48,921 bases of DNA from Euglena gracilis (GCA_039621445.1 CP154954.1:29769411-29818331); one strand, 5' to 3'. Positions 6,289-44,619 are shown, counted from the first letter of the stretch. Numbers and translations: made by a program. The notes: generated from the sequence alone by a model not told the origin.

Positions 6289-6437
6289 CCTCCACACCAG
6301 CCCGCTGCGTCACCGAGGCCGTGGGCCCTGCTCGGGGTGTGCCTCGCACGGCCGTAGTTTGCTAGTGCCTCTCACGAGGACCCTCACCCCCGCCTATTTG
6401 GCTAATGGCCGGGCTCCTTCAGACCCCCAATCAGCCA

Positions 6438-10273: not shown

Positions 10274-10325
10274 ATTGAATTGAATTGAATTGAATTGAAT
10301 TGAATTGAATTGAATTGAATTGAAT
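10274..10325. repeat. (TGAAT)n pentanucleotide microsatellite; copy 2 at 24104-24155 partly converted to (TTAAA)n
   Basis: Directly visible. Confidence 0.95.
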
Positions 10326-13124: not shown

Positions 13125-13632
13125 GTCCCCCCCCCCCCCCCGCCCCCCCCCACCGTTCCCCCGTGGGCGGTCATTTACCCATTTCCCCATTCCGGAAAAA
13201 TTGACTCCAAAACAACGTTTTCTGCTCTTTTCTTTTTGTATCAGTTCATTTGGGCTTTCTCCGCGACTGTGAAACGCTTCCCTCCGATGAAGTCATTATC
13301 CGTGTGCGTTTGATGGTCAATCAATGCCCAGCCCCAATCTTTTCTCCATCCCAGCTCCGACAGTGCCTGTCCTTCCAACCACAGAGTGACTCATATTTCC
13401 AAGCAAGTTAACTTCCAGGCGCTCCCCACCGCCCCCTTTGGTTGGGAGCCCTTCAGGAAGAGCATGTTGCTCCTGGGAGGGACGACGAGTCTCTTGACTA
13501 CATGTTTGCCCCAGCAGGCTTTATCCCAAGCTGTGGTTGCAACAGCATTTTTTTTTTAAAAAACAAAAGTTGTTCCCGGTGTTCAGAGTTGCCTGGCTGA
13601 CAGAAATTAAATTATTAATATTATTAACATTG

Positions 13633-14333
13633 CAGGGGGGGAAATGCGTTGCGCATTTTTCCGCATTTTTGCGCATTTTTTTTTGCGCATTTTTGCCAAT
13701 TTTTCAAAAAATGCGCATTTTTGCGCATTTTTTTGCGCATTTTTTTGCACATTTCCCCCCGTTTTTTTGCACATTTTCCATTTTTTGCGCATTTTTTGCG
13801 CATTTTTTTGCCCAATTTTGCATATTTTGCCATTTTTGCACATTTTCCACCCAAATCATATTGCTCACCGAATTTTGCCCACGTTCAACTGACCCATTTC
13901 TGTAACCAACGAACCCATTGTCGCACTTTTTTTTCCACCCAAGGGACCCGCCTCAAGAGAAAACCCATGGGTGATGAGGTGTGAGTACTCATCCAATGAC
14001 AATGAGGACACTAGGGGTTTCAGAGACCCCACATTGACACGTAACCAAGGCGGGACTCCCACTCCCCTGGTCACAAGTAAGGGGCAACCATGGCTGACAT
14101 TGTTGGTTATGGTGAACGGAGAGTGACGCCTTGGTCATGCATTTTTTTTGGCCAAAATGCCTTCATTTCAGCTCTGTTTGGTGATTTTGGTTTAATTTTG
14201 GGTTTACTGTTGGAAATTTTTCTAAGTCCTTTTTCCTTAGGAATGTCACAAACTCAGCGCATTTTTTGCGCATTTCTTTGTGCATTTTTGCGCATTTTTT
14301 TCCGAGGGCCGTCCAGCGCATCCCCCCCACATG
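13633..14333. mobile_element. CAGGGGGGG...CCCCCTG MITE with 7-bp TSD aacattg (copy 1; right terminus mutated)
   Basis: aacattg at 13626-13632 and 14334-14340; subterminal (TTTTTGCGCA)n arrays. Confidence 0.85.
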
Positions 14334-25524: not shown

Positions 25525-25556
25525 CCTTTTCTTTTTCTCCCGCGTCCTCTTTTCAG
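25525..25556 (+). promoter_or_regulatory. Polypyrimidine tract plus AG acceptor 10 nt before the ATG; possible spliced-leader trans-splice or cis acceptor (copy 1 ends at 11715)
   Basis: gccttttctttttctcccgcgtcctcttttcag|gttcacaaccATG. Trans-splicing is inferred from the euglenid assignment only. Confidence 0.4.
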
Positions 25557-25566
25557 GTTCACAACC

Positions 25567-25814
25567 ATGCAGGTTCTCACACCCATGACGTTGTACTCCA
25601 ACGGGCGCAGCATCACTGTGTACGCCCCCTCCACCCTCTCCCCCACCCCTCCGGCAGGTGGAGGCTTCCCACCCAGTGGTCCACCGCTTCCGCCGTCTAT
25701 TGGGATTCCAAATGCCCCTGCAGCCGCCGCGGAAGGTTGGAATCCAGGTGCCGGCCCTTTGGGCTCTCCTGGCACTTTTCATTTGAGTCCGCTTGGCATT
25801 TGTCTCAGCTTCAG
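25567..25814 (+). CDS. Candidate first coding exon (MQVLTPMTLYSNGRSITVYAPSTLSPTPPAGG...)
   Basis: Strong upstream acceptor, ATG, Pro-rich open frame identical in both duplicate copies. 3' boundary (ag|gttccc) tentative. Confidence 0.5.
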
Positions 25815-28800
25815 GTTCCCGATGATGTCATGCATTACCTTATCTAGTAATCCATCCGTGCATTTCTTTTTGTGTTTTGAAAAAATGGATTATTTCGCAG
25901 GTTTGCACGGGTATGGGATCTCACCAGTTTTTTTTTAAAAAAACTCCGAACGGTTTTTTCTTCTTCAAAAAATGGGTCAAAATGCTTTTGTTTTGAATCA
26001 CAGCCTTTTAATCTTCAAAAATCCCTCCTCATTGAGTCAGATTTGCTATGCCGATGCCCCCAGGTGGACAAATAGCTGGCCAGCCTGCTCAGTTTACCTT
26101 AACTCCCCCATACATGGATTGTCATCACCAAATTCACATACCTACATTCATTCCCGCCATTCCCTGATTCTCGTGGTGATTGCCAATACGGGCAGTCGGT
26201 TTGAGCTTTTGATGCCTGGAAGAAGCCGAAATGGGTGAAGTGCTCTTTGGTCTCCAGCAAAACCATGCTGCGAATTGCAAGGTGTTTGTTCACCCAGCAT
26301 ACCAATGCTGAATGATACCAAAAAGATAACCAAACACTCACCCCACCGGTCCCTCTTGTTCCTTAAAAATTCGTTTGAAGCCTTCTGAAATCAGGACACC
26401 TTAAAAACTTCAGCCCGAAAATGTTTTAATTATTGTGAATTCTGCAAGCCAAGGTTGAATTGTAAATGGGACGAATTGAACCCAGCAGCGAAGGAGTATC
26501 ATTGCCTGCTTTTCTTTTCATTGTCCTCGGGGTTTGTAGGGTTCATATGGGGCTCATACCAACCCCGCCTTGGCGTATTGGATGTGGGGGGCAGTTGACC
26601 CAAGAGCCCTGTTCCTTGCGTGGGGGATCCCGAGGGTGGGTCAAAAATGTTTTAACTGACCCACCCAGTGGATGACGTTCATGAGTGGAAAAATGCCAGT
26701 TTCTAGCGTTTATCAGGCCTGTGTTGTGGTTTTTTGATCTTTCAATACTCACACTCCAGAACTTTTGGACCACATCTTCACGGTTGCAAGCCAGTCCTTG
26801 ACCCCATTACCTCCGGCAGTGGGCTTGTCAGGACCGCTCCACCTTGCACCCCCCAGCCTGCTGCCCGCCAGCCCGCCTCTCTTTGGGCCCGGCCCCGTGG
26901 CCCCCACTGTGGTCCCTCCCATCCCTGCAACGCCTGGGCCGATGGGAACCCTGTTCAGCGGGGTCCCCCCCCAGCCCCAGCCCCCTCCCATCGTTCCCGA
27001 GTGGACGTTCATTTACCCATTTCCCCATTCCGGAAAAATTCACTCCAAAACAACGTTTTCTGCTCTTTTATTTTTGTATCAGTTCACTTGGACTTTCTCC
27101 GCGACTGTGAAACGCTTCCCTCCGATGAAGTCATTATCCGTGTGCGGTTGATGGTCAATCAATGCCCAGCCCCAATCTTTTCTCCATCCCAGCTCCGACA
27201 GTGCCTGTCCTTCCAACCACAGAGTGACTCATATTTCCAAGCAAGTTAACTTCCAGGCGCTCCCCACCGCCCTTCAGGAAGAGCATGTTGCTCCTGAGAG
27301 GGACGACGAGTCTCTTGGCTACATGTTTGCTCCAGCAGGCTTTATCCCAAGCTGTGGTTGCAACAGCATTTTTTTTAAAAAAAACCAAAAGTTGTTCCAG
27401 GTGTTCAGAGTTGCCTGGCTGACAGAAATTAAATTATTAATATTATTAACATTGCAGGGGGGGAAATGCGTTGCGCATTTTTCCGCATTTTTGCGCATTT
27501 TTTGCGCATTTTTGCCAATTTTTCAAAATGCGCATTTTTTTGCGCATTTTTTGCACTTTTTTTTTGCACATTCCCCCCCGTTTTTGCACAATTTCTTCAT
27601 TTTTTGCGCATTTTTTGCGCATTTTTTTGCCCAATTTTGCACATTTTCCATTTTTTGCGCATTTTTTTGTGCATTTTTTGCCCAATTTTGCATATTTTGC
27701 ACATTTTCATTTTTGCACATTTTCCACCCAAATCACATGCTCACCGAATTTTGCCCACGTTCAACTGACCCATTTCTGTAACCAACGAACCCATTTTCGC
27801 ACTTTTTTTTTTCCACCCAAGGGACCCACGTCAAGAGAAAAACCCTTGGGTGATGATGAGGTGTGGGTACTCATCCAATGACGATGACGACACTAGGGGT
27901 TTCAGAGACCCCACATTGACACGTAACCAAGGCGGGACTCCCACTCCCCTGGTCACAAGTAAGGGGCAACCATGGCTGACATTGTTGGTTATGGTGAACG
28001 GAGAGTGACGCCTTGGTCATGCATTTTTTGGCCAAAATGCCTTCATTTCAGCTCTTTTTGGTGATTTTGGTTTAATTTTGGGTTTACTGCTGGAAATTTT
28101 TCTAAGTCCCTTTTCCCTCAGGAATGTCACAAACTCAGCGCATTTTTTTGTGCATTTTTTTTGTGCATTTTTGTGCATTTTTTTGCGCATTTTTGCGCAT
28201 TTTTTCCGAGGGCCGTCCAGCGCATCCCCCCCCCCCTGAACATTGTTAATTAGCCATTATTGATGGTGGAAAGAAATTAAACCGCCTCATGGGGTGGTCC
28301 ACAGTGAAAAAAAAAGAGACTTCCGACTTGGTGTTTGAGAAGGACCATTCACAACTGATTGTTAGAAAATACATGGTACGCTTCCTTCAATAATAATCGG
28401 AAACTGTAGTGAAAGACTTTCAGAAACGGGTCCCAAAATGGCATTAATGTGGTAAAGAGCGGTGGCGCAATGCGGAGCTATCCCGAGGATCCTTAAGTTC
28501 TGTTGAATTATTAAAATAATAAATAAACAATGAACGGAGGGAGTTTATCAAGGTGGGTTCAGTTGTATTCTGGCAGAAAATATTTCTATGTTGTTGTTCC
28601 TGTTGCTGTTTTACCTACCTTGGATAATTTGCTTCTGGAAAACTGTGCTCCAGCTAACTTGTTACATTGTCTTCTGCATGTGGTTTCTGTGGATTTCTGG
28701 AATCTGTCGTTGCGTTGTTTGTGTGGTATTCCCTCCTGCCCATTGTTGCTCACCTGTTTTTTTTCCAGTGCTGCATGTGTGTCTCGCACATTTTTCATGT

Positions 28801-31800
28801 TCGCGTTGTTTCCCTCTCTGGTGTTATCAGTAACCCCCTCCCCAATAAGTGCACGGATGTGCACTTTTTTTTAGGAACCAAATTTTGACCTCCTCGGCAC
28901 ATTTATTGTGAATGTGTCAAAATCACAAACCACGCAATCTATTTTAAAATATTTTTTCATGACATCCCCTTGTGAATTTCTTGTGATTTGGCCAAGTATT
29001 GTGCCCCATTCAGTACTTCAAAACCGACCAGAATGATTTTGTGGTACTGGCTTCAATTGGAATTACCTTTTTGGGTTGCGCATCAATGTTCTCCTTTTTA
29101 TGCACGTTTTCGGATCGATTAATTGGAGGAGGATGGGGGTGCAATGGTGCACATCTGTTGGGGGGGGGGGAAGTTTGATGGTCGGTCCAGGGGGGTGATA
29201 GGTTGCATGTTACAATGCATGGGGAATGCATGGGAGCAGGTTTTCAGAATCAACATGTTTAATCATGTTTAAATCGAACAATTTAGCTTTATGTGTAATT
29301 GTGAATAAAAATAGAATGATAACATGTGTAATAATTAAGAAGTTATAAAAAGTGCACTGGTGATGAACGTTGCAAACTTGGAATTTGCCATCCTGATGCC
29401 ATTTTTCTTTCATGAGACACTCTACTGGCTGCAGCAGCGCCACCTCCCGTCGTAGCAAGTGGCCCGGTTTACAGCCTGCCTCCACTGCCAGTTGCCCCTG
29501 CAGTGCCATACACCGCACCCTTCCCCGTTGGGCTCCCCGTTCTGGGCCCTCAGGCCCAGATATCAGCGGCCGGGTACCGCCTCCAGGAGCTCAACACTGG
29601 GACCAACCTCTACATCTCCAACCTGCCCGACCGCATCACGAAGGAGGGGCTGAAGGAACTCTTCTCCGCCCACGGCACGGTGATGAGCTGCCGAGTGGCC
29701 CGGAAGCAGGGCCAGAGCCCTAGCCATCCCATTGCTGACCACGGTGACTGCCCCCCCCCCCCCACTCCAAGGTGGGCTCGGCCAGAAGTGGCCAAAGCGT
29801 ACACCCGACGAAGCCGGAAATGTCTTTAACAACTTGCCAGAAAAATGCACCACTTTTGCGCCATTTTTTATTTACATGGGTGGATAGCAGCCCATTTGAG
29901 GGTGGGGGGTCTGGAGACGTCTGATTTTTTTTGAAGTGGAATTCCACCCTGAACTGAGTCAACAATGGCATGATGGTATCGGCTTTGTGCAATACACAAC
30001 ATCAGGTCCATTGCGTGTGTGAATGCATGTGTGCGTGTGTGAGTGGTGTGTGTGTGGGTGTGCAATGTGTGTGTGACAGTGCCCAGTCCCGGGGGATACC
30101 TCTCTGGACAAGCGACTCAGGGACGAAGGGACTCAAGACTCAGACCCTGACCCCTGAGCAAGGTGAAGGTGCCAGGCCTTGAAAAGGAGTACCCCCTTTT
30201 TTTTTTGGACCCGTGGACCCTGTGTGCCGACATTTGCCCCCAGGGGGTGGTGGTTATACCTAGCAGAGTATTTCTAAACCCCCTCCTCCGTGGCAGTTGG
30301 ATCAAGCCTGGTGCAGCGTTTCTCGTCACGTGTGATTTATGTGTTGATTACTGATTCAACCAAGTATGCACCACCCTTTCTTGGTGGGAAGAACTGCCAC
30401 AAAAACGACCAACAAGAATGTGTAATGCCACTGTTTCTTGAGAGTATGGCAAGCACAATCAATCAGAAATCGTTGGCAAAGCTAGCAGAGCACCAGCGAG
30501 ATGAATTCATCAACCAAGCGTCTTTACACCCACTTCTCTGGGTATTTCACAGTGCATTTACAATTTTGACTCTGGAAAGGGGGCACCAAGGACCGTGACA
30601 ATTAGTTCCTGGGGGGTTTGGAGCAGACACTCTTGTGGGAAACTCCCCTCAAATTGTAATTTCACATGGTAATAATGAGAACACAGGAAATGTAGTTGGA
30701 AGATATCCGCACAAAAGTGCTTTGCTTCTGTGCCCCCTCCACTTATTTTGACACCCCCTCCACTTATTTTTTAATGTTCTTTTTTAAGGCTTCCAAGACT
30801 GTTAAAGGTTAATTTTTTTTAAGACGCCTTAAAAAAAAAACCTGGTACCTCCCGTCGACGGGGACATTATTAACCCCTTGGTGAAAAAGAAAGTGATGGA
30901 AAGACTAACGTGATGACATCGTTGTGTTTCCCCCCTCCGTGTGGTGCAGTGGGATCACGGTTTTTCCCAACGTTGTGCAGGGGGGGGGGAAATTGATATC
31001 AATTTTTTTCCGCATTTTCCGCATTTTTCCGCAATTTCCGCAATTTCCGCAATTTTCCGCAATTTTCCGCAATTTTTCCGCAATTTCCGCAATTTTTCCG
31101 CAATTTTTTCCCATTTTTTTTCCGCAGAATTTTTTTCCCACCACCGAAGATGGAAGATGCAATGAGTTCAAGCCATTCTTCAAATGGATCAACAGGTGTT
31201 CTATTGTGTTTTGTTGTTTTTCCCCCCCCAGTTTACCAATTTTTCTCACAGGTGCACCACTGGTTACAGAATTGGGTGCGTCCCACCTGTGCAAAGAACA
31301 TCAAGCGTGTTGATTTGTGCTCGCCTGCATCGACGTGGGTGTTGCGGTGTTCTGAACCTCACAATTGAAAATTTTCTAAGTCCCCTCAGACAGAAATGTG
31401 TATACCCGATATCAATTTTTCCGCAATTTTTCCGCAATTTCCGCAATTTTTCCGCAATTTTTCCGCAATTTTTCCGAAGGCCTCCGATATCAATTTCCCC
31501 CCCCCCTGCGTTGTGATCCTTTGGCCCCCTCCCAGGGATGGCCCAGGCTGCGGTGACGGCGATGAACGGAATGATGGTCGATGACAGCCAGGGAGGCCAG
31601 AGGTCACTGCATTTCCCCACATTGTTGTCCCTGGATTGAAGGGGGCAGGACCCGAGGGATGGCGGTCTGAGGTCAAGGTTCGATCAACGGCCTAGGGGGA
31701 ACCCCGTCCCGTGCCTCCTCCCCGTTCTGTGCCTGGAATCAGAAATAGAGACACCAGTGGTGATCTTTGCTTCGGACTGCCAAGGTAAATCAATTAGGAA

Positions 31801-34800
31801 TGTCCAATAAATTAGGCAGGAACGTCCCCGTTCCTAACCACCCCCCTGCCCTTCCAAAGCCCCTACCCTCACCCGGGTTCGCGCCGTACCAAACCCGCTT
31901 CTGACCTCGGGGGGGGGGGGGCAGTTGTCTGCCCCTCAGCATGGCCCCCGCCACCCTGCGGGCGGCCGGTTCATTCGGGTGAAGCTGGCGGACCACGACA
32001 AGGACAAAGGGGTGACCAGCCGGCCGTCGTCAGACCTCTACATCTGTAACCTGCCCGACTCCTGGTCGTACGCGGAGCTGCACTCCACGTTCGCCCGCTA
32101 CGGGAAGGTGTACTCCTTGACGATGTTCAAGGACTCTGAGACAGGTGCCTTGCTTGCGTGAAGATTCACGTGTCTGATCACTCAGCCGAATAAAGAGGCG
32201 TTGATTTAAATTCTTCCCATTTCCTGCAATGGGTTGGTGGAAGATTCTCAACCAAGTTTCAGGGATTAAAGAGTAGGGGTGATTTGTTTGAATTCGGTGA
32301 GATCTGGGAGTATTTAGTGGGGAGGGGGGGCAGGGCAGGGGTTTTGGAGATGCGGTAACACCAAAGCGAAAGTGAAACCAAGAGCCACCGAGCCCATGAG
32401 CAGTCTTGCACCAGAGCTGCAGCATTCTCCATTCCTTCCATCTGGTGGTTTTTTTGAATCTCCGATTTGTTTCCCCTTCCTTCCTCTGCACAGAGTTGTA
32501 AATATCATTTCTGACCTGCAATGGCTGGAGATACATTTCCCTGGTCCATGCCATGCGTGCTCAGCTGGAGGAGTGGTGTTCAAGCTAACAATTTTTGCAT
32601 ATTTTATCATTGTCATTATCATTTATTATTTTCGTATTGGAAAATGTGTGGTTTTGCATTCATTTTGTGTATTTTTGACCTCTCATTTTGCATTTTTTTT
32701 TTGCATTTTTGCAATTGCATTAAACGTATGTGCATGTTTTTTTTTTTTGCACTGTTTTGCCCCTTGCGTTGCTTATTTTGAGCTGCCTGGTTTCACCCCC
32801 CCCCCCCCGGTGTTCAGGGGGCAACATCGGCAGCGGCATGGTGCGTTACTCCTCCACCGCGGAGGCCACAGCAGCCATCCAGGGCCTCAACATGCTGCAG
32901 CTGCCCGGGATGGACCGCCCCATCGAGGTGAAGTACGCCGAGAGCCGGGCGGAGAAGGACCGCCGCGTCGCGAACCGCATGGACAACGAAGAGGAGGATC
33001 AGGTCGATCCCTTCAAGTGACTACCCTAGTCGGAGGTTCCCTTCAGACCCGCCTCCCTCGCGCTTGTCTCGGCCCGCCCACATTGCTTTCATTTAACCAC
33101 GAGGTCCAAAGAATGAATCCACTCAGGCATTTCTTGTGTACTTGCCTGGCTCAGTAATCGACCTGACCAGGTTTGGCATTTTCCCCCACTCTAGCCACTC
33201 TTCTAATTCCTCCTTCCCTTCCAGGGCGTAGCTTGAGAAAGTTTCCCCCCCCCCCCCGGTCCAGCCAGCAGCCTTTTTCCAGCCAGCAGCCTGTTTCCAG
33301 CCCCGGACCCCCCTCCCCCGCTCAACGAGGTTTATTTGTTTCCAGCCGCCCTCTGCAGCTGGATGGCAACTGATTTTTCGCCATTGGGTGCAAAACGGGC
33401 AAAAGTGGGTCAAAAATGGGCAAAATGGGTCAAAATGGGCGAAAATGGGTCGGAAAAGGGCTGGTCATGGCAAATATGGTCAAAAATCGCATTTTTCTTG
33501 CATAATTGGCAGTTTTTTTGGACATTTTTTTGCGATTCCGATTTTTTTGGTACCCGGTTCGACCCCAGGTCGGGCCCAGTTCCCGCCCGGGACCCGGCGG
33601 AGGGGGGGATCAGCCAGCAGCCTTTTTCCAGCCAGCCATAATTTTCCAGCCTCTGAGCTTGACCCCCCTGTGTGCACTGTGGCCGTTTTGAGCTTGCCCC
33701 CCCCTCGGGGGGGGGGAGTCGATGAAAAACGCCCTGCTCCCTTCCCTGGTATTTTGCTTTAACCAAAATTTTATGGTGAGATGGCGCCACTTCCATCTCT
33801 TTCAAATGTTCACTCCTTGCAGCCACTCCCCCAGCCGGAGCCCCCTCGGTGGAATGAATACCAATGGCCTCCAAGGCTGTCCGCCCCCCAGACAAAAAGG
33901 TCCGAAGCAGACAATTTTTTAAGCACTGGCCGACCCCCCCCCCCCCCCGGGGGTGGGTGACTGGTTTTTTCGGAGGGGGGGTCGCCTGGGGAGGGGGGGG
34001 TCGGCAAAAAATTACTAAAGTGACCCGGCGCCGAAGGCGCCGGAAAATTTTTTTGGGCCTTTTTTGCATGTTTTGGGTCAAATTTCCTTTGGATTCCAGA
34101 GTGGCCGACCCCCCCCCCCCCCGGGGGGGGAGTGTCTGACTGGTTTCCTGAAAAAAGTGACTGACTGGTTTTTCAAAAAGTGGAGTGACCCCCCTCCCCC
34201 CCGGGGTCGGTAAAAAAATTGTATGGTCCGAAGGTGGGAAAGGCCCATACGATGTCCAATGTGATGCCCATTGAAGATTCTGAACCCCTCCCTAATGAAG
34301 GTTTGGGGAGGGTCTTTGACATCAGCCCCCTGTGATATTTACCCCATTGAAATCAGGGTGTTTGATTTTTTTTTTTACAATGGAAATGCCCTCTGTGAAT
34401 AAGGCGGTAGCTTGTGTCAAATATGCCCAAGTTCGCTCCCCACCCCTACTCGGAACCTAACATTGCATTACATTGCATTACGTTATGTTGCATTGCATTG
34501 CATTGCATTGCATTGCATTGCATTGCATTGCATTACATTACATTCATTACATAGCATCATATCACATCATATCACATTTCATTACATTACAATACATGGC
34601 ACTACATTACACGTACATTTCAACCCCCCACACTCGCCAACTTGTCATGCGGACAGTTTCCTGGCTCCCGTCGTTGCTGCTGGTTTCCGTCATTGTGGCT
34701 GAGATACCTGGACCTGGACGAACGGCCTTGAACCCAGCCCACCCAGCGGCCGCCCCCCGCCGAGAGCAGCAGCAGCGGTGGTGGCAGCAGCGGCCAGCTG

Positions 34801-37800
34801 GCCACCCCGCCGAACGTACCAGCGCAGGACATGGCGGCGGTGCAGGCGTTCTCCCGCATCATGAACCTGAACGCAACAACAGGCAACGCGAAGCAAAGCC
34901 TGATGTGCCTGAACAATGGGCTGCAGCTCCGGTGTGCAGATGCCTCGCTTGCAGGTGTTTCTTGACCTTACCTTACCTTACCTTACTTTACCTTACCTTA
35001 CCTTACCTTACCTTACCTTTCCTCACCTTACCTTACCTTACCCCCTCGATGGAGGTCCAGCCAGCCAAAACCTTTTTTCCAGCAGCTACCAGCCAGGCTG
35101 CGGACTCGGGGGGGGGGGGGAGCTGAAATGGGCTTTACCTCAAAAATTTTCTGTGCAAAGCTCCAGAAATTATTTAAAAAGTTTTTTAAAAAAATTGTCA
35201 AAAATGGCATTTTTGAGAAACTTGTGAAAATGAATTGCAAATTATTTATCAAATCATATGAATTTTGGCTATTCTTTTCTGGTGGAAAGCAGAAAAGAAG
35301 AAAGTTTTTCTGGCTCCAGAGGGTTGAACCCCCCCCCCCCAGCCCGGGGTGGTCGGACCGCCCCCTCCCCTCCCCCGTGCAAAACCAACGCTCGCTTACG
35401 GCCCTGCCCGAGGGTGTCTGGCCAAAATTATACTTTGCCAGAAAAATCGACCCTCAAAAATACTGCCAAAATGGGCAGAGAACCTTAGGTAATCTTTCAG
35501 CATCCTGTTTACAACAGGTTTTGAAACCACTGGGATTTTCTTTGGCTAATGCCAGAGGAAAAAAATCCCTGAACACAACAGCAAACTATCAAAGTGGGTA
35601 CAGCAAACATTTTGCGTAACACAAACGCCTCCGTTATTTGGCCTTCTCTGCCACAGGGGTGAAGTGGACCCAGCCGCTGATCATACAGATGACACCAGCC
35701 AGGACCTGATGGGCGTGCTTTGCTCTGGTAGGGGGTACCCCACATGTCCAGTAGAAATTTTCACATATTCCAAAACCTCTGCAGGGGATTTTGCGAACGA
35801 AAAAGGAAAGAATATCAGTTTGGGGATGTACATAGGCAGGCCATTGTTTAAGCGGAAGAGGACCCCACCCTGCACCTTGGGAGCGGGGTCCAGCCATCAG
35901 CAGTTTTATCTCCAGCCAGCAACTTTTTCCAGCCCCTCCTCCCCTGGACGCTTTTTTTTTCAAGCTGCCTTTTGGGCGGCTGGCAGCAGGGGGGGGAATA
36001 TGCAACTTGCATGATTTGCTTTTTTTTACATAATCAGGTTTTCCCGAAATTTGCTTTTTTTGCATTTTTTTTGCATTTTTTTTTTGCGTAAAATATTTTG
36101 CCTGGAAATTTTTTTTGTAGTTGGTCGCCATGTCATGTTTTGTCTCTGGTCCCTCTGCAGTTGCCTGGCGTCTTTGATACTTTCACCCTATTAAAAGGCA
36201 GCTTTGCAGAGGAGTGAATGTTTTCCGAGTTTGTTTTTGTCATTTTTATTGATGTTCAATGGTGACCTGGAGGGACGATTTGCTTAGACTGAACGTGCAG
36301 GTGCCATTCATGTTGATTTTCAAAGCTTCAGTGCTTGCCATTGTCTTCCAGGAGGTCTTCTTTGTGAACCATTGACAGGTGTTTACGGATTTTAGGCAGA
36401 AAAACTCTATTATATTCCAGCCTTTTCTCAGGGGTTTTATGCAAGTTGCATTTTTTTTGCATTTTTTGCATTTTTTTGACTTGCATAATTCGAAGGGCCA
36501 AGTTGCATACCCCCCCCCCCCTGCTGGAAGGTAACGGAATCTCTGATTTCGGAGTGCAAAAAAATGGCGAAAATATGGGCAAAATAAGTCAGAATTTGGC
36601 TGGCCGGGGCATATTTTGGGTCAAAATAGGTTTTTTTTGGAGGGCATTTTTGCAGGTTCGATTTTTTTGTACCCAGTTCGACCCTGGTTCAGGTCCAGTT
36701 CCAGCTGGGGGAGGGGGGGGTCAGCAGCCTTTTCCCAGCAAGCCCAAACTTTCGGTCTGGACCCCCAGTCAAGGAAGGGAGGGAGGCACCAGGGGGTATT
36801 GCTTTAAGCAGGGCGGTCCATAAGGGACGGGATTTTTTTTTTTTAGTTAAGGACCGCCCCCTTGAGGACCGCCCCCCCCAGCACCAATTTTTGGACCCGA
36901 AAAAATTTTTCCGGCGCTTTTGGCGCCGGGTGTTTTTTTTTTGACCCATTTTGGGAGGTCCCCCCAAAAACCCCTCAAAACCCCATTTTTTCCCCACCTT
37001 CCAAAGATTCAAAATTTTCTCAACAATTCATTTTGAGAGTTTTTAGAAGCAAAAAAAAGCCATTGAAAATCCAAAAAAACTTCCAAGAGAAAAATTGTCA
37101 GTAAAATTCTGACTGTGCCAAAATTTGGTCCACTTTTTTTGACCTTCGTTATTTTCCACCCCCCCTCCTAAAAAATACCAAATTTAACCCTGAAATTGTT
37201 AAATTTTTTTTGTGAAAAAAATGTGGTTTTCCATCAAAAAATCATGTATTTTGGGCTCATTTTTCAAAAAAACAGGGTCGACCCCCCCACCTCCCGGTTG
37301 GGGGGGGGGTCGACCCCCCCCACCAGGCCTTCCCGTTCTGCCCTGGCCTGCCCCGAAAAAGACCATACACACCTCTCCCCTCTTCCCCTGGAAGTTGGCA
37401 ACGAGCCCAAACAATCACTTAGTCATTGATCAACCCCCTCCCTTGCACATTGTGTAAATTGCCCAAAAATTTTGACGCTCTGTAAACGGAAGAGGAAGCG
37501 GAAAACCGCTTCCAAAAAAAGGGCTGTTTTTTTGAGGTTCCTGGAAGAGGTCTGGCCGAAAGTACTGGGTCATTTGGAGATGATGGGGGAAACCCTGTGA
37601 AAAAAAAAAACAGAAGAATGCAAAGAAGCGGTTTTCTGCTTCCTCAACCCAACAAAATAATTTTTGAACAGATCACTACAACAGAAGAAGAATACCACTG
37701 AACAATCTGAATAGGAAACTACACTGCATTCACTGAAACATCAAACAGTCAATGTTGTATGTTGGTGAGTTGTACATTTTACATGTTGCAACAAAAGACG

Positions 37801-40800
37801 GTCAAAGTTGGCCAAAATTTGGTCAAACTTCTTTGGCCAAATTTTTGGCAATTTTGGGTCATTTCGGTTAACTCTTGGCAAAATGGTGGCCAAAAAAGTG
37901 ACAAACAGTCAGGCCAATTGGCCGAAAGTACCAGCGGATTTTGGATTTTTGGAAGGGGGGTAAGGTGGTAGGGGGGGGGGTCCTCCCACCCCCCCCAGTT
38001 TCGGAAGGGTGTCCCCCCCTCCTCCTCTGCGGAGGCAAAAAAAAAATCGCGCTGGGAGTGCACTTTAGGACTTTTTTTGAGGCTAAACATGAAATTTTGG
38101 CAAAATGGCCAAAAATGACCATAAATCGGGACAGGTGGAGAGTTGTCAGAAAATCAATATACTGTTAGATAGTGCTTTTTAAGGGCTTCAATTTAGGTAT
38201 TAGTCATTTCTTTTGATTCTCCACCATTTTTGAGAAATTTCAGAAAAATTGACCTTTTGACCCCCCAAAAAGCGGCCGAAATTTTCGGCGACCGAAAACT
38301 GGAGATGGGCCGGCCCCCCCCCCCCAGTTTCAGAAGGGGTCCCCCCCCCTCGGAGATTCCCATACAACCCTGCCCCCCCCCCCCACCTCTTCCCGTATTT
38401 CCGGGAGCACCAATTTTTGTACCCCGAAATTTTTTGACCTATTTTGGGACCCGAAATGGGGATCCCCCCCCAAAACCCCGCAAACCCCATTTTTTTTTCA
38501 CACCTTCCAAAATTTCAACATTTCTCAAAATTTTGACTTTGAGAGGTTTTTGAAGCAAAAAAATGCCATTGAAAATCCAAAAAATTCCCAAAGAGAAAAA
38601 CTCTCAGTAAAATTCGAATGCTCCAAAAGTTGGTCCTATTTTTTGACCTGCATTTTTTTGATCCCCCTCCTAATAACTAACAATTTTCAACCCTAAAATT
38701 TTGGAGATTTTTTTTTTTTGGTGAAAATGTGGTTTTCCATCAAAAAACGATGTATTTTGGGTTCATTTTTCAAAGTAATTTTCAAAAAAGTTCCCCGACC
38801 AAAATCCTTATTTTTCGGTTGAAGTGTATTGGGACAGAATTTTTTTTGCTTAAGGACCGCCCTGGCTTTAAGGCGTAAATTTTCAGATTTTCAAGGTTTT
38901 TTAAGGCGGGTTTTAAGGGTTTTAAGGTTCCCAAAGGCATTTTTCAAAATTTTAAGGCGTCTGTTTTCCAAGGGAAGTCCACCCGGCATCAAACGTCCAA
39001 AATCCATCCAAAAACGAAAAATTCGTAAACCTCGTTTTTTCGAGTTTGGGTGGGTAGAGAATGTTCCAGCGATGCCAGAAATTCTTTTTTCCCCTGGAGT
39101 TGGCTTGTTTTGCCCAGATTTTGCAAGCTCATTTTCTGCTTGAATTTCAAAAAATTTGCCAAATGATTTTCTTTTAAGGTTCTTGAACGTTTTTAAGGCG
39201 TTTTGGCCAAAAAACTTAAGGCTTTTTTAAAGGTCTTAAAAAAAATAACCCCTGGGAGGCACCCCTCACCTACAGCCAGGCCCCCTCCTTACATTAAACC
39301 GTGTCCTCCACCATTCAGCACACCAGTTGCAACTTTGTGGGAACGTTTTAAAGAATATGAAAACTGCTTTGCACGTTGAAATGAAAATGCATGCTTTCAA
39401 GCGTTCCTTTTTCAGATTTGTCGATTTCATCTGATGCATTTTCCTCTCATGTTTCTTTGTAAATAAGGATTTGGCATTCAAAGCAAATGAATAAAATATA
39501 TCACAGAAATAATTGAGCGAAACTGGGGCGTCGCTAGCAGCCTTTGCCCCCCCCTGGGGCCGGGAACTGGGACCCCATTTTTTTGAAATCTGACAGATTT
39601 TTGCCCCAAAAGTACCCAAAATCGCATTTTTTGTGGTCAATATTGGTGGGAGGTAATTTCTCTGTTGACCTTGAAAAGGCTCACAATACAGAAACTGCAG
39701 AAAAATAGGGGAACTGCAAGAAATGCACTCAGGATTACTGCAGGGCCACAGGGGGATAAGAAACGCTTCCAAAATTAAATCCAGGCTGGATAAATCAAAA
39801 TTTGAATAGCATAGTGCTTTTCTACCAGAGTTCAACCCCGGAAGGTGGGAGGGTCCGGACTCCTTCAAATTGTCATTGCCCCCCCCCCCTTCTGGCTCTG
39901 GGGTGTGGCATTGGGGAATGAGGCGGCCTCGGGCCTGCCAGGGAGGTGTCAGCGGCGGAGGACTACTCGAACCCGCCGGGGTTCCCCAGCCGAAAGCCGG
40001 GCAAAGGGGGCGGCTCACTGTGGGACCGAGTGCAGGGTGTGTACCCCTCAGCCTCGCCCTGCTCCTGTCGCTGCTTGACGCTGTCCCAATGCCCGCCCTG
40101 TCCCAACCCCTGTCGGTCGTGGTGGCTCTCCTCGTTAGGGGCTTCGTCTTTAGACAGGCTGGATTTCAAGTGTGGATAACCTGGGTGCCCCAAGGTCAGA
40201 CCAGGGTGCCCCAAGGCACCCTGACCTGATCCTCCCATCTGGGGGGGGGGTTATGGTCAATCTGGTTCTCTTGGTTCTCTTGCGCTCTGACACCTCCTGG
40301 ACTCTTATCTTGTTGCTGTTCTGGCTCTGTCGTTTGATTGTGGCTGGGCCGCATCCACTTTTTTCCAGATTGTTGAACATGCCAATTTCGTGTTCCCCCC
40401 TCCCTCACCACTAGCGTCAATGCTAGTCCCGCACAGTTTACAATTAGAAGCAATATATTGAAGTGTAACCCTGGGTTTTGAAAATCTGCTACAACCTCCA
40501 ATTTCCCCCTCGTTTCAACATTTTCCCCATTGTCATCAGGTCTGGCTCACCCCTATATATGACTAGGCACCAGCAAATATTCACAACACATCCTGAACAG
40601 CTTCCGACATCGGAGCACAGTTTTTTCCTGCACCGTCCCCTGTAGTACAGCAGCCACCACAGCACACCGTTTCCCATCGCACCACAATCACATCCCCCAT
40701 CAAGGCACCACGCAACACATTTTAGTTCAGGGAAAAAGATGCCTCCTCATGATTCTGTTCTGGTGTGCTGCCAGTCCTCTCTTTGCGCTGAAATTTTTTT

Positions 40801-41971
40801 GGAATTTTTTTTTACAAATCTTTACCCCAAAAGTTCCAAAGGTCCTGCACAAAAAGCGCCGGGGTGAAAATTTGGCCTTTTTGGCCGTGGTCCCACCCCA
40901 CCCATTTGACCAGGGGGGGTTCCAAACCCACCCGTCCCACCCCCTTTTATAAAAAACCCTGGGGAGAGGTCAACGTCCCCACCAGGCACTCCTGCACAGG
41001 GAATGCCCCCACACCGTGCGCACCGCGTGTGACACCGCGTTCACCGTGTGGCGCACCACGTGGCGCATCACGTACACTGTGTGAGAAGAACCATTCCCAT
41101 TTGTAAAATTTTCACAAATTTTTACCGAACCCTATTTTCTGGTTCTTTTTTTTTTGCTGGTTTCTTACAAATCGGCCACTTTTGGCTGTTCTGAGCCACT
41201 TTTTGGCCATTTTAGGCCACTTTTGGCCACCTTCGGCCATTTTGGGTTGCATTTGGCAATTAAGGTCAACCTTTGGCCCGTTTTCAGCCACCTTTTTTTT
41301 GGCCCATTTTTCACTGTTTTGGCTGCTTCTGGCGTTTTTGTCCATCTGTGGCTATTTTGGACCACTTTTTTGCTGCATTTAGCAGCTTTTTTTTTTGTAC
41401 AGATGATGTGGCCATTGTCATAGACATGTTGAGATGTGGTGGAAACACCACTCAATTTTGGCCAAAAAAAGACAGGTAAAATGACCAAAGTCACCCCATA
41501 TTGCAATCATTTTCACGGGTGGTTCTTCTTTCAAAAAGTCATTTTAGTTTTTATAAGATTCTTGTCCCACAGTGCCACACAACGTTGATGCTGCAGTGCA
41601 GAAACATCACCACGCCCTACCCACAACCCATTGTCGATGGTTGCAGTTCCTACAGACTGTTGCCCAGTATTGCACTCATGTACAATTATAAATATCGGAA
41701 CATCTCGCAGTTTGTCAAATCATTGGTCGTCGGATGTGCACCCCATCAGCAACAAAATTCCCGGTTGCCAAGACACTCATCCCCCTCCCCCCCTCTGCAG
41801 GTGTCCTGCCGGGCCCTGCTGATATTGGCAACGAGGGTCCCCAGGCACTGTACAAGGGTAACCCACAACAGGCACAGCCACCTACCCAAGGCAACCCAGA
41901 GGACTGGGGCGGTCCCCCTATGCCCTCTGGTGTTTTCAATGACATCAACAAGGACAATAATTCGGACAACT

Positions 41972-42007
<36 letters not shown>

Positions 42008-42500
42008 TGGGTGTGGGTGTCCGCACGCCTGTGTGTGTGTGTGTGTGTGTCTGCATGCATGCGTGCGTGTGTGCGTGCGTGCGTGTGCATGTTTGCGTGC
42101 ATGCATGCATGGATGTGCTTGTGTCTGTATGTGTGTATGTGCTTGTGTTTGCAGGTGATTGATGTATGGGAAGGTCTATCTGTGTGCATGTGTGTGTATG
42201 TATTGGCATGCATGACCTCATTTGACACCTAAGCATGTGTCCGTGGGCTTGTGTGTCTGTGTGCTGGATTATTCTTGTTTTTGCCTGAACCCAGCCATTT
42301 TCGCCCAGGCGCAGAGAGGCTTCAATGGATCGTATATGTGCCCAACACTGCGCAGTGTGCCAAGGCAAGTTGACAATTACAAAGCCAGTTGACAGTTTTC
42401 CACGCTGCCCTCCACCCCCCCCCCCCCGCCTACCTACCCGCCTGCCTCCCGCCTCAGGGCTTGGCGGGGCAAGCGGAGGCCGCGCCGTGCCGCATATTGA
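25567..42500 (+). CDS. Multi-exon gene: Pro-rich N-terminus, two tandem RRM domains, low-complexity C-terminus (ELAV/Hu-CELF-RBMS-like RNA-binding protein)
   Basis: Join of 29417-29721, 29978-30005, 31536-31585, 31964-32144, 32818-32996, 33823-33868, 34736-34931, 35657-35727, 39829-39870, 39926-40036, 41801-41972 and 42458-42500 is phase-consistent and stop-free. It gives RRM1 (TNLYISNLP...SPIGFVQYTTSGMAQAAVTAMNG...FIRVKLA) and RRM2 (SDLYICNLP...GSGMVRY...AAIQGLN...PIEVKYA). Exons upstream of 29417 are only partly resolved. Confidence 0.85.
26760..26962 (+). CDS. Candidate Pro-rich N-terminal exon (…TVASQSLTPLPPAVGLSGPLHLAPPSLL…GTLFSG)
   Basis: cactccag| acceptor; sequence conserved between duplicates, which diverge shortly after the ggg|gtcc donor. 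Phase linkage to neighbours unresolved. Confidence 0.45.
27455..28238. mobile_element. CAGGGGGGG...CCCCCTG MITE with 7-bp TSD aacattg (copy 2)
   Basis: aacattg at 27448-27454 and 28239-28245; intact CAG and CTG termini. Confidence 0.9.
29417..29721 (+). CDS. Exon: Pro/Ala-rich segment plus first half of RRM1 (…TNLYISNLPDRITKEGLKELFSAHGTVMSCRVARKQGQSP)
   Basis: RNP2 motif LYISNL; frame open back to a stop at 29413-29415, so the start is approximate. Confidence 0.9.
29722..29977 (+). other. Nonconventional (non-GT-AG) intron, CAT/ATG stem
   Basis: 5' agcCATcccattgctgac pairs with 3' gtcaacaatggcATGatggt; CAT at +4..+6, ATG at -8..-6; Y|R at both junctions; removal builds RNP1 SP|IGFVQY. Confidence 0.85.
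29978..30005 (+). CDS. 28-nt exon encoding RNP1 of RRM1 (IGFVQYTTS)
   Basis: atc ggc ttt gtg caa tac aca aca tca g|gtcc; phase 1 matches acceptor ccccctcccag|gg at 31535. Confidence 0.85.
30978..31508. mobile_element. CAGGGGGGG...CCCCCTG MITE with 7-bp TSD cgttgtg, in a GT-AG intron
   Basis: TIR cagggggggggaaattgatatc / gatatcaatttcccccccccctg; cgttgtg at 30971-30977 and 31509-31515; (TTTCCGCAA)n arrays. Confidence 0.92.
31536..31585 (+). CDS. 50-nt exon, RRM1 helix 2 (GMAQAAVTAMNGMMVDD)
   Basis: Typical RRM AxxAxxxMNG motif; not shown in the ORF track. Confidence 0.9.
31586..31963 (+). other. Nonconventional intron, CAG/CTG stem
   Basis: gac|agcCAGggagg ... ccaccCTGcgggc|ggc; CAG at +4..+6, CTG at -8..-6; gives MNGMMVDD|GRFIRVKLA. 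Confidence 0.9.
31964..32144 (+). CDS. Exon: end of RRM1, linker, first half of RRM2
   Basis: GRFIRVKLADHDKDKGVTSRPSSDLYICNLPDSWSYAELHSTFARYGKVYSLTMFKDSET; donor g|gtgcct. Confidence 0.93.
32818..32996 (+). CDS. Exon: second half of RRM2 (alternative end 33002)
   Basis: tgttcag|gg acceptor in phase 1; GGNIGSGMVRYSSTAEATAAIQGLNMLQLPGMDRPIEVKYAESRAEKDRRVANRMDNEEE. Confidence 0.9.
32997..33170 (+). other. Candidate nonconventional intron abutting a GT donor
   Basis: gatCAGgtcgat ... atcgacCTGaccag|gtttgg; 10-bp perfect inverted repeat tcaggtcgat/atcgacctga in the +4/-8 register. Confidence 0.6.
33823..33868 (+). CDS. 46-nt exon (PLPQPEPPRWNEYQW)
   Basis: ctccttgcag| acceptor in phase 0; frame joins the next exon through a stem-closed intron. 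Confidence 0.7.
33908..34225. mobile_element. hAT-like MITE with 8-bp TSD gtccgaag, nested in a nonconventional intron
   Basis: TIR cagacaatttttt / aaaaaattgtatg; gtccgaag at 33900-33907 and 34226-34233. Confidence 0.88.
34461..34615. repeat. (CATTG/CATTA)n pentanucleotide microsatellite
   Basis: Directly visible. Confidence 0.95.
34736..34931 (+). CDS. Exon (QPTQRPPPAESSSSGGGSSGQLATPPNVPAQDMAAVQAFSRIMNLNATTGNAKQSLMCLNNGLQLR)
   Basis: GC3-rich open frame; donor cg|gtgtgc in phase 2 matches the acceptor at 35656. Confidence 0.75.
34965..35041. repeat. (CCTTA)n pentanucleotide microsatellite
   Basis: Directly visible. Confidence 0.95.
35657..35727 (+). CDS. 71-nt exon (GEVDPAADHTDDTSQDLMGVLCS)
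   Basis: ttctctgccacag|g acceptor and g|gtaggg donor; phases match both neighbours. Confidence 0.65.
35987..36523. mobile_element. CAGGGGGGG...CCCCCTG MITE with near-perfect 7-bp TSD (ctggcag/ctggaag)
   Basis: TIR cagggggggaatatgcaacttg / caagttgcatacccccccccccctg; flanks 35980-35986 and 36524-36530. Confidence 0.82.
36790..39254. mobile_element. hAT-like element (outer), CAGGGG...CCCCTG, 8-bp TSD ggaggcac
   Basis: ggaggcac at 36782-36789 and 39255-39262; termini cagggggtatt / aataacccctg. Confidence 0.88.
36809..38864. mobile_element. hAT-like element (inner, nested), CAGGGCGGTCC...GGACCGCCCTG, 8-bp TSD gctttaag
   Basis: gctttaag at 36801-36808 and 38865-38872; perfect 11-bp TIR; contains further related repeats (~36890-37270 resembles ~38410-38780). 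Confidence 0.9.
39829..39870 (+). CDS. 42-nt exon (EFNPGRWEGPDSFK)
   Basis: gcttttctaccag|ag acceptor in phase 1 matches the donor at 35727. Confidence 0.6.
39871..39925 (+). other. 55-nt nonconventional intron, CAT/ATG stem
   Basis: tgtCATtgcccc pairs with ggggaATGaggcg|g; removal shifts into the frame that stays open through the next three exons. Confidence 0.65.
39926..40036 (+). CDS. Exon (CLGPAREVSAAEDYSNPPGFPSRKPGKGGGSLWDRVQ)
   Basis: Same frame as ORF 39946; donor g|gtgtgt in phase 1. Confidence 0.65.
41801..41972 (+). CDS. Exon (GVLPGPADIGNEGPQALYKGNPQQAQPPTQGNPEDWGGPPMPSGVFNDINKDNNSDN)
   Basis: ccctctgcag|gt acceptor in phase 1; donor tg|gtgtgt at the start of the GT microsatellite. 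Confidence 0.68.
41973..42200. repeat. (GT)n / (GCAT/GCGT)n compound microsatellite
   Basis: Directly visible. Confidence 0.95.
42458..42500 (+). CDS. Putative last coding exon (WAWRGKRRPRRAAY*)
   Basis: cctcccgcctcag|g acceptor in phase 2; TGA at 42498-42500; basic KRRPRR tail. Confidence 0.6.
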
Positions 42501-44619
42501 GGCCGCGATGGTGGCGCCGCAGTTGCTGGCCACCGCTCTCTGCCACCGCTCCCCCACCGGTGCTTGTCGGAATTGGTTGCGCCAGGAAGGCAATATTTCA
42601 TTTGTTTTTGTGGTTTGCATTTCTTTGGGATGTGAAAAATGGGAGAGATTTTTCGCCTTTTTTTGCTTTTTTTGGAGATAACCCCCCAAATGATATTCCC
42701 CCTGAAACATTATGTGGAGTCCATCCCCAGGGGGGGATATTGTTTGGGGGGATATTATTAAATAATTTTTGTCTTTTTCTGTGGCAGAATTTGACCTTGA
42801 AATCGGTTGTAACCCCCCCCCCCCTCACTTATAACCCCCCCGGGGGTTATAGGATCCTGTTTAGTGGTTGGCCCCAAGGGGGGGGTTATAAGTGGGGGGG
42901 TTACAGCCTTGGCGGATCTCTTTGCCTTCTCATGTCTTCCCGGGGGGGGGGGGGGTTATAAGCCACGGTTTAGTGGTTGGGCCCGAGGGGGGGGGTTATA
43001 AGTGGAAGGGGGGTTATAGGATGGGGGGGGTTATAAGTGGGGGGTCGGGTTTATATATTTTTGTCAAATTCCATCTTTGGTGCAATTTTTATGTCTCAGA
43101 AAGGCGCATTTTTGCTTTCCAACTAGAACGTGGCTGAAATCATGAAAATCTTTTTACAAAAATATTATTATTCCAACCATCACAAAGCACATGTTTTTCT
43201 TGACATCAGTGTGGGGGGGGGGGATATCACATTGGGCTACCAAAATCAGGTCCCGTGGTGATATTATTTTTTTGGGTGCTTTGTTTGAGTAATGTTTAAC
43301 GACACATGCAATGTTGCTAAATTATCTTTCGAAGATCTCTTCCACACATCAAACAACTGGCTGAGTTCGATGGAAGAAGGTACCCAGTCCCAGTGGGGTT
43401 GGACCCCACCAGGATACCCAGGGGAGAAAAAATTGTGCACCAACAATTTTTTCCCATTTTTCGCCAATTTTCCCCAATTGGTGTGTTGATTTCGGATCCA
43501 TTCAAAAATGCATCTCGGGCACTGCGCCACCGCCCCCCCCCCCCTCCAGCCTCCCTTCCTCCTCTCTGCCCAGACATCCTCTCTTCTGACCCAAATCCCA
43601 ACATTCCAGTGCCAGGCCCAGCTTGTTTTGCACCCCAGAAGGCACAGTCAACTGACGTGTGGAAAAATCCATTTGGGCGACACACAGATTCACTCCCTCG
43701 CCCAAATTCAAAGCGTGCACGTTGATTCCCAAGGTAGAAAAAAGCGGGAGGTTTTCATTTTGGGCCATTGAGTGTTCGTATCAGTGGAGTGTTGAATGAA
43801 TGGCGTTCCCTCAGAACAAAAAGATTTGGTCTGGAGTCCTGATCAAACGTTTGTGGTCGAATTCCAGTCTCAGTCATTTACCACAGCGTCGAAGGATTTA
43901 TATTATAAAAACAATGGAGGCATACTTTATCCCATCAGCAAGTGAATGGGCTGGTTATAGGGGCATTTATTTGCCCAGACGTTTTTTATTGCTTATGTCT
44001 TTGTCATTTGCTAGACAAGATTACTCTGGTCGGATTTTTTTGGGCAAAACATTTGCCAAAACAATATGAGCCAATTTCATGTTTAAGCTGGGCATTGGGA
44101 GATGGTAGTTTAGACAGTCTACACCAGGAAATTCCTCTCTCGTCCAATAATTACAAGGAGAATGCACAAGAGTCATGTCTGTTGGACCAAGGATGTGTTT
44201 TGCTCAACTGGAGAAGGAAACCGAATGTCTTGTAATGGGAAAAGCCCAAAGAAAACATGTTTGGCGTCGTTTCTCTGCCACTTTTTGTTCGGATATTAAG
44301 GTGTGCCAAGGTTGGGGCAGCGTCATATGGACTCATGACACAAGGTGGACAGAAATTATTGTGCACAAGAATTACAGTAAAAGAATATTACGTTGATTCT
44401 GGAAAATTGATTTTGGGTTTACTTTATTTCCCCCAAACTGTCTACCGTATTTTTTTGTCTGCCCTGAAAGGTGGTCAGCAAATTTGTCAATTTTGTATTC
44501 GGAAGCCATCCCCCCCACTTCACCGGGCTGCCCCCCCCCACTTTACGTTCGCATGCAGATGCTTTGGGAGGGGGGGGGCAGGTCTCAGCTGGGCCAGGAC
44601 CCCTGCTGGGCTATCCCCC

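Follow-up and report, generated by a model that had tools for sequence, protein, structure and literature searches.

A 48,921-nucleotide (nt) stretch of Euglena gracilis DNA (GCA_039621445.1 CP154954.1:29769411-29818331), here called the window, carries on its + strand a gene for a protein with two RRM domains. We found that this gene consists of 15 exons between positions 25556 and 42500 of the window, to which all coordinates below refer, and that its 14 introns are of two kinds, six with GT-AG borders and eight without. We refer to the latter as nonconventional (NC) introns. The joined exons form a single open frame of 612 codons, running from an ATG at 25567 to a TGA at 42498-42500, and encode a protein of 612 amino acids that has a proline-rich N terminus and the two RRM domains. 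No N occurs in the window; its G+C content is about 50%, and homopolymer runs and dispersed repeats are common in it.

The sequencing runs that matched the region numbered 24, all from one organism. In 19 of them the word share was 0.15 to 0.22, against an exon share of about 0.18; the label RNA for these 19 is a guess, and the low word share fits exon-only content. Four of the 24 runs are raw RNA-seq, and run X20, with a word share of 0.73, behaves as DNA. Over 24000-43500 we compared four runs: X1 and X4 (contigs, from two studies), X21 (raw RNA-seq), and the DNA-like X20. Joint evidence is taken from the 15 joints listed, with 767 more beyond those, and the remaining junctions come from the offsets between contig blocks. 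Where a direct repeat lies at the borders, a joint is described as slidable by n, meaning that n + 1 cut registers are equivalent.

Gene structure and removal of the introns from RNA

All nine joints of the gene model that are listed are supported by one X1 contig and one X4 contig each and by no X20 contig (Table 1). Six of the eight NC introns have listed RNA joints, and four of those six also have 12 to 24 X21 reads. The other two, 26110-26805 and 33869-34735, are placed by contig offsets, and neither appears among the joints listed. The letters found between blocks in X4 record 14 (a 2072-nt contig) and in X1 records 1 and 4 number 57, 43, 78, 48, and 134, which are exactly the exon lengths of the model.

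The same segments are present in the DNA. X20 contigs run unbroken over 28975-30836, 31509-33075, and 39053-40248; record 9 spans intron 29722-29977, record 10 spans 31586-31963, and record 12 spans the 3′ border at 39942. Since the RNA joints are absent from X20 and its contigs continue through these three introns or borders, removal takes place at the RNA level. In a bin of unique sequence (28557-29207) within NC intron 27215-29432, depth was 0 in every one of the three RNA runs, against 62.9 in DNA, and this intron is therefore physically missing from the RNA. Taken together, the eight NC segments lie in genomic DNA and are precisely missing from mature RNA, two of them by contig offsets only. 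None of the eight has a GT-AG or GC-AG border in any equivalent register, and the other six introns are GT-AG. U12-type AT-AC introns were considered as well and were rejected, with AT-AC ends in 0 of the 8.

A preliminary description of the window, made from the sequence by itself, had proposed four introns without GT-AG borders, 29722-29977, 31586-31963, 33869-34735, and 39871-39925. It ascribed to each a complementary pair of triplets at +4 to +6 and −8 to −6 and a purine as the next base. These features are indeed there, the triplets being CAT/ATG, CAG/CTG, CAA/TTG, and CAT/ATG and the next bases A, G, A, and G. As to whether the four are introns, three are and one is not. The RNA joints 29720>29977 and 31584>31963 reproduce the first two in equivalent slid registers, in X1 and X4 contigs as well as X21 reads. 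The third is supported indirectly: in X1 record 4 and X4 record 14, 48 letters separate blocks 32815-32999 and 34735-34930, and in both records they correspond to exon 33823-33868 plus slidable letters. The fourth goes unused, along with the exon 39829-39870 proposed upstream of it, as the RNA joins 35696 to 39943 and removes both. The 3′ model that this joint replaces consisted of exon 35657-35727, GT-AG intron 35728-39828, exon 39829-39870, and the 55-nt intron 39871-39925. One frame had been said to continue to the stop at 42500. This holds for the RNA-based model; the incorrect 3′ model differs from it by 90 nt and so likewise keeps the frame. Four further NC introns lie upstream of 29722-39925, the range that had been described.

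The encoded domains agree with this structure. We scanned the exons one by one with the Pfam RRM_1 profile (PF00076; cutoff, 20.7 bits). Exon 5 matched profile positions 1-37 of 70 with 31.8 bits (E = 1.3e-7), above the cutoff, and the match sits at the very end of the exon, at 29721. Exons 8 and 9 each scored below the cutoff with half a domain (profile 1-35, 19.7 bits, E = 8.1e-4, and profile 40-66, 14.1 bits, E = 0.043, respectively). Solved RRMs (PABP, HuD, RBMS1, and Sxl) also align with exon 5 up to its end only. When RRM1 was joined over 29722-29977, 30006-31535, and 31586-31963, it aligned at full length with RRM2, scoring 85 against 23 ± 4.3 for shuffled sequences (z = 14.5), in line with the earlier proposal that splicing rebuilds RRM1. 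A search for homologues of exon 5 among longer proteins returned 1072 candidates, 0 of them at an E of ≤0.001, and supports no conclusion.

Table 1. Exons and introns of the two-RRM gene, with the joints, contig blocks, and X21 reads that place them
Feature	Coordinates	Strand	Length (nt)	Placement	Remarks
Exon 1	25556..25788	+		X4 record 14 block	ATG 25567; pyrimidine tract and AG 5′ of exon
NC intron 1	25792..26053	+	262	Joint 25788>26051, skips 262, non-GT-AG; 12 reads	Slidable by 3 (25789-26050 to 25792-26053)
Exon 2	26051..26109	+	57-59 by register	57 letters between contig blocks	Both borders NC
NC intron 2	26110..26805	+	696	X1/X4 record offsets	Slidable by 6; next exon base A
Exon 3	26806..26998	+		X1 record 1 block 26802-26995 (0 other letters); X4 block 26804-26995	
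NC intron 3	26999..27173	+	175	Joint 26995>27171, skips 175, non-GT-AG; 0 reads, X1/X4 contigs only	Slidable by 3; TGG/CCA in canonical register, then A
Exon 4	27174..27214	+	41-43	43 letters by contig offset	Both borders NC
NC intron 4	27215..29432	+	2218	Joint 27213>29432, skips 2218, non-GT-AG; 2 reads, 1 start	Slidable by 2; next exon base A
Exon 5	29433..29721	+		Blocks 29432-29720	First half of RRM1
NC intron 5	29722..29977	+	256	Joint 29720>29977, skips 256, non-GT-AG; 24 reads	Slidable by 2 (covers 29722-29977); CAT/ATG, then A; begins AGCCAT
Exon 6	29978..30005	+	28		NC border 5′, GT border 3′; RNP1 part of RRM1
GT-AG intron	30006..31535	+		Joint 30002>31533, skips 1530, GT..AG (cut +3); 22 reads	
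Exon 7	31536..31585	+	50		AG border 5′, NC border 3′
NC intron 6	31586..31963	+	378	Joint 31584>31963, skips 378, non-GT-AG; 16 reads	Slidable by 1; CAG/CTG, 5-nt spacer, then G; begins AGCCAGG
Exon 8	31964..32144	+		X4 block 31963-32141	End of RRM1, first half of RRM2
GT-AG intron	32145..32817	+		X4 record 14, blocks 31963-32141 and 32815-32999 adjoin	
Exon 9	32818..33002	+		Blocks 32815-32999	Second half of RRM2
GT-AG intron	33003..33822	+		Indirect, 48 record letters between blocks	GT/AG borders
Exon 10	33823..33868	+	46	Indirect, offsets in X1 record 4 and X4 record 14	AG border 5′, NC border 3′; in frame
NC intron 7	33869..34735	+	867	Indirect, record offsets	CAA/TTG grown to 9-bp helix, then A
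Exon 11	34736..34931	+		Blocks 34735-34930	
GT-AG intron	34932..35656	+		Joint 34930>35656, skips 725, GT..AG (cut +1); 16 reads	
Exon 12	35657..35696	+	40	Joints at both ends	AG border 5′, NC border 3′
NC intron 8	35697..39942	+	4246	Joint 35696>39943, skips 4246, non-GT-AG; 18 reads, 18 starts	Not slidable; CAG/CTG, then G; starts AGCCAGG, ends CCTGCCAGG; spacers 3 and 5 nt
Exon 13	39943..40036	+		Joints; 134 record letters = 40 + 94	
GT-AG intron	40037..41800	+		Joint 40035>41800, skips 1764, GT..AG (cut +1); 15 reads	
Exon 14	41801..41972	+		Blocks 41800-41965, cut at (GT)n run	
GT-AG intron (probable)	41973..42457	+		Borders and frame only	
Exon 15, coding part	42458..42500	+		Borders and frame	TGA 42498-42500

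X4 record 14 extends beyond the listed blocks at both ends, with 22 extra letters 5′ of the exon 1 block and 250 letters past 41965. The pyrimidine tract and AG suggest that the 5′ end of exon 1 is likely a spliced-leader acceptor. At 29477, 29535, 31556-31557, 32032, 32042, 32047, and 32909, exonic letters in the RNA contigs and reads differ from the window. They differ equally in the DNA-like X20; these are therefore strain or allele differences, and RNA editing is rejected.

The 5′ part of the gene lies in a tandem duplication of about 13.8 kb (938-14722 and 14712-28639), with 96 to 97% identity between the copies, or 90% over the last 1.1 kb. The upstream copy holds a second set of exons 1 to 4 at about 11716-13376. 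The two sets agree fully in exons 1, 2, and 4 and differ at 5 positions in exon 3. Over exon 3 the X1 contig showed 0 differences to the downstream copy and the X4 contig 2, and we therefore take the downstream copy as the source of this RNA; an origin from the upstream copy was rejected on these matches. The duplication may be an assembly effect, or the upstream copy may be expressed as well. Between 13135-13170 and 26973-27008, nine substitutions fall within 36 nt beside a poly-C run, and each gives the upstream copy a C or a G. Ordinary divergence seems a poorer account of this cluster than a base-calling or polishing artefact or a local conversion. The cluster alters the first two bases in the copy of NC intron 26999-27173 and leaves the TGG triplet intact.

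Repeats are abundant around and within the introns. Summed X20 word depths reached 26,000 to 409,000 at 24000-24650, 27255-28556, 30510-31811, 33114-34415, and 35718-38972, against about 40 to 300 in exons; these stretches are very high-copy dispersed repeats and lie inside both intron types and in intergenic DNA. NC intron 8 is packed with high-copy repeats, and within its 4.2 kb are two 81%-identical copies, at 36960-37268 and 38465-38774. Microsatellite-like arrays occupy introns at 31010-31100, 31420-31470, 34440-34560, 34960-35040, and 41975-42110, with (TTTCCGCAA)n-like, (GCATT)n, and (ACCTT)n units and a long (GT)n/(GTGC)n run, the last of which begins right at the 5′ splice site of intron 41973-42457. 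An Rfam scan of 24000-43500 at gathering thresholds gave 0 matches, so the introns hold no known small RNA.

Pairing of the intron ends

Two published descriptions of euglenid NC introns serve as a reference here. In the first, positions +4 to +6 pair with −8 to −6 (CAG/CTG in 33 of 55 introns), the downstream base is a purine in 55 of 55, and the borders are pyrimidine-purine (PMC4770533). The second, obtained by knock-in mutagenesis, is a stricter code, 5′-N3CDG-/-CH′GN5-6 with R after the junction (PMC12501133). The register given in the preliminary description, with its downstream purine, matches the published euglenid model (PMC4770533, PMC12501133).

With all equivalent registers allowed, a perfect triplet pair at these positions followed by a purine was found in five of the eight NC introns, against 0.2 expected (binomial upper bound, P ≤ 2e-5). 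Pairing between +4 to +6 and −8 to −6 occurs in every NC intron except 25792-26053. In 26110-26805 (CAT/TTG) and 27215-29432 (CAC/CTG) the first two positions are paired and the third is mispaired, with six more pairs behind; in the latter these form the helix AGAGTG/CACTCT. Intron 25792-26053 has no canonical register and instead has a GGCAT/ATGCC pair nearer its 3′ end. In the chosen registers a purine follows all eight NC introns. The weaker rules hold for most of them, with a pyrimidine at the upstream exon end in 7/8, a purine at +1 in 6/8, and a pyrimidine at −1 in 6/8. Among the six GT-AG introns, no GT-AG register shows a paired triplet, and the strict code fits none of them in any register.

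Pairing extends beyond the triplets and would bring the two junctions close to each other. We folded the first and last 20 nt of each intron over a U7 linker and found median energies of −15.5 kcal/mol for NC introns, −2.45 kcal/mol for GT-AG introns, and −6.3 kcal/mol for random pairs of the same lengths (n = 3000; Mann-Whitney P = 0.001 for NC versus GT-AG and 0.006 for NC versus random). In minimum-energy folds of whole introns, the ends were closed in five of the six NC introns of ≤900 nt.

The six GT-AG introns look conventional. All have GT-AG borders and C-rich tracts, which in three of them amount to 14 or 15 C in the 22 bases before the 3′ CAG, and five of the six fold at 0 to −4.2 kcal/mol. 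The sixth, 34932-35656, has strong end pairing, at −11.2 kcal/mol with 10-nt ends and −12.7 kcal/mol with 20-nt ends.

The motif is permissive. The 964 donor-like and 512 acceptor-like sites in 29400-42500 combine into 37,622 pairs that obey it, 601 of them 40 to 100 nt long. The motif alone is no predictor of NC introns and is the source of a convincing false intron. This is 39871-39925, a 55-nt segment inside NC intron 8 that has a CAT/ATG register, a purine after it, and ends that pair at −11.7 kcal/mol, and that is not used in the major mRNA form. The segment could be a relic or else an element nested there that resembles a MITE (miniature inverted-repeat transposable element).

Alternative explanations and a model for removal

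What we observe is where the junctions lie, that the introns are missing from RNA and present in DNA, and that their ends pair. We interpret these observations, with a probability of roughly 93%, as a euglenid two-RRM gene of 15 exons whose pre-mRNA is matured by two processes, NC splicing and GT-AG splicing. The preliminary reading of euglenid NC introns lying among spliceosomal ones thus has the support of the RNA data and of the literature. Several observations weigh against this interpretation. The strict CDG/CH′G code fits only two of the eight NC introns. Intron 25792-26053 fits the rule in no register, and 26999-27173 has a weak helix of only 3 bp and open ends in the whole-intron fold. 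The RNA status of X1 and X4 is a guess, and X21 alone is recorded as RNA. Finally, NC introns 26110-26805 and 33869-34735 and GT-AG introns 33003-33822 and 41973-42457 are placed by offsets or borders, with no listed joint.

The non-GT-AG introns might instead be cDNA artefacts, produced when reverse transcriptase jumps a hairpin between short direct repeats on an mRNA that keeps the segments. Direct repeats of 1 to 6 nt at the borders of seven of the eight NC introns, and the terminal hairpin in most, both favour such template switching. We nevertheless regard it as very improbable. The unique sequence in 27215-29432 has no depth in three RNA runs, the X21 counts of 24, 16, and 18 at NC joints match the 22, 16, and 15 at GT-AG joints nearby, and the same joints recur in runs from three studies. 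Intron 35697-39942 lacks a direct repeat altogether, segments kept in the mRNA would split RRM1, and knock-in genetics shows that NC splicing occurs in vivo (PMC12501133). Loss at the DNA level, either by programmed elimination or through a polymorphic transposon insertion missing from the expressed allele, would draw on the view that NC introns are MITE-derived, with repeats like target site duplications (PMC11282704; PMC12501133, Discussion), and a “filled” allele could stand beside an “empty” one that was dropped from the contigs. However, X20 has 0 contigs for the listed joints and its contigs are continuous over 29722-29977, 31586-31963, and 39053-40248, and of the explanations considered this one is the least probable, with next to no weight.

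A third alternative concerns the 3′ part of the gene, where the model with exons 35657-35727 and 39829-39870 might be right at least as an alternative isoform. It has in its favour that 39871-39925 obeys the motif (CAT/ATG, then G) with well-paired ends, that the 90-nt difference keeps the frame, and that E. gracilis is reported to have alternative introns that overlap (PMC11170887). Against it, position 35696 is joined to 39943 in both RNA contigs and in 18 reads with 18 different starts, the 134 letters between blocks equal 40 + 94 nt and leave no room for a 42-nt exon, and none of its joints is among the 15 joints listed. The 18 reads equal the 16 and 15 at the flanking junctions, so the 35696>39943 joint represents the major form. 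We therefore think the earlier 3′ model very unlikely to be correct, if slightly less so than the artefact of reverse transcription; a rare isoform with exon 39829-39870 could exist, at most as a minor form.

On the favoured interpretation of two splicing processes, the six GT-AG introns would be spliceosomal, with C-rich polypyrimidine tracts. In the eight NC introns, inverted repeats by both ends would fold into a hairpin and so place the two junctions side by side, and the cuts would be made at a fixed offset from the helix base, with 3 nt left at the 5′ end and 5 nt at the 3′ end, before a purine. According to the literature, the processing machinery is probably non-spliceosomal, and NC introns would be removed after the spliceosomal ones and released as circles (PMC6221363, PMC11282704). 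The remark in the preliminary description that this machinery is not known to have been identified agrees with the Discussion of PMC12501133 and with PMC11282704. The mixed short exons that it pointed out, each bounded by one intron of either kind, are real (28, 50, 46, and 40 nt), and from them it concluded that two systems must cooperate. This is stronger than needed: the tubA and gapC data indicate that removal is sequential, with NC introns leaving after the spliceosomal ones (PMC6221363). We infer that short mixed exons require only sequential action, since with the NC introns in place the spliceosome would see much longer “exons.”

What the NC machinery recognizes can be put forward only tentatively. 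It is possible, if rather doubtful, that it reads geometry, measuring with a 3-nt/5-nt ruler from any long enough terminal helix and cutting before a purine. Six of the eight NC introns fall outside the CDG/CH′G code, and five of those six keep the N3/N5 register before R, with other triplets (CAT/ATG, CAA/TTG, TGG/CCA) or with a mispaired third position and at least six more pairs. This is at most a hint that helix geometry matters over triplet identity, from eight introns and a different species; a 2016 paper already says that complementarity outweighs triplet identity (PMC4770533). If the idea is true, the published code is too narrow for the E. gracilis genome, and a structure-specific endonuclease-ligase system becomes the favoured candidate.

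Significance and comparison with known intron systems

The locus adds little to the biology of these introns, as their kind, the register, the purine rule, the mixing with GT-AG introns, and their later removal have all been published. It does provide a 15-exon, RNA-supported model for a gene whose structure gene finders tied to splice motifs would break up. It also shows that motif and frame keeping together are insufficient for calling NC introns, given 37,622 obeying pairs and one plausible in-frame call that was false. The native introns outside the published code are possible test cases for the existing knock-in assay. As to which machinery removes NC introns, the locus is no more testable than any other Euglena gene.

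The eight introns share the traits of euglenid NC introns (Milanowski et al., PMC3935182 and PMC4770533; PMC12501133): non-GT-AG borders, an end hairpin with the +4 to +6/−8 to −6 pair, 3- and 5-nt spacers, a downstream purine, short direct repeats, and GT-AG introns alongside, at lengths of 175 to 4246 nt in this gene. In such introns complementarity is kept more than sequence (PMC4770533). The agreement with the strict code is poorer, as only 31586-31963 and 35697-39942 fit it. Three of the others have different, fully paired triplets (CAT/ATG, CAA/TTG, and TGG/CCA), two have one unpaired position, and one uses another register. In E. agilis, where 71.8% of introns are NC (Nomura et al. 2025, PMC12501133), the code fits only 61.2% of NC introns and leaves 38.8% outside, and outliers are therefore to be expected here; with an n of 8, the deficit lacks the significance needed to support a conclusion.

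The E. gracilis catalogue of Gao et al. (2024, PMC11170887) comprises 28,337 introns, 16,151 of them nonconventional, and the NC share in our gene (8/14) shows no material difference from it. That catalogue gives a consensus of CCAGG at +3 to +7 and CCTG at −9 to −6 for NC introns and C-rich polypyrimidine tracts for conventional ones. The same sequences recur here, with AGCCAGG at the start of 31586 and 35697 and AGCCAT at 29722, and so does the range of 10-nt end pairing, mostly −2 to −10 kcal/mol. At 4246 nt, 35697-39942 comes near the top of the length range in PMC11170887 (maxima, 4682 and 5931 nt). The “intermediate” introns of PMC4770533 resemble 34932-35656 in combining conventional borders with strong end pairing (−12.7 kcal/mol). 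Unlike the NC register, 34932-35656 has CAG/CTG at +6 to +8 and −9 to −7 and fits the NC code in no slid register, and it is best read as a conventional intron with “intermediate”-like ends.

Many genes carry both intron types, and the trans-acting factors for NC introns are described as unknown (PMC12501133). In tubA and gapC, NC introns go after the spliceosomal ones (PMC6221363), and NC introns are released as circles (PMC11282704). Published work thus already covers the rule, the presence of GT-AG introns next to NC ones in single genes, and the fact that NC introns are removed later (PMC4770533, PMC6221363, PMC11170887, and PMC12501133), and the NC introns of this gene may already be included in the supplementary gene sets of PMC12501133 and PMC11170887. 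The conformation of NC introns is unlike that seen in self-splicing introns or in tRNA introns (PMC6221363). With the bulge-helix-bulge of tRNA and archaeal introns and with the hairpin-bounded introns of diplonemids (PMC12621601), they share cut sites that are set by RNA structure, an analogy of mode only.

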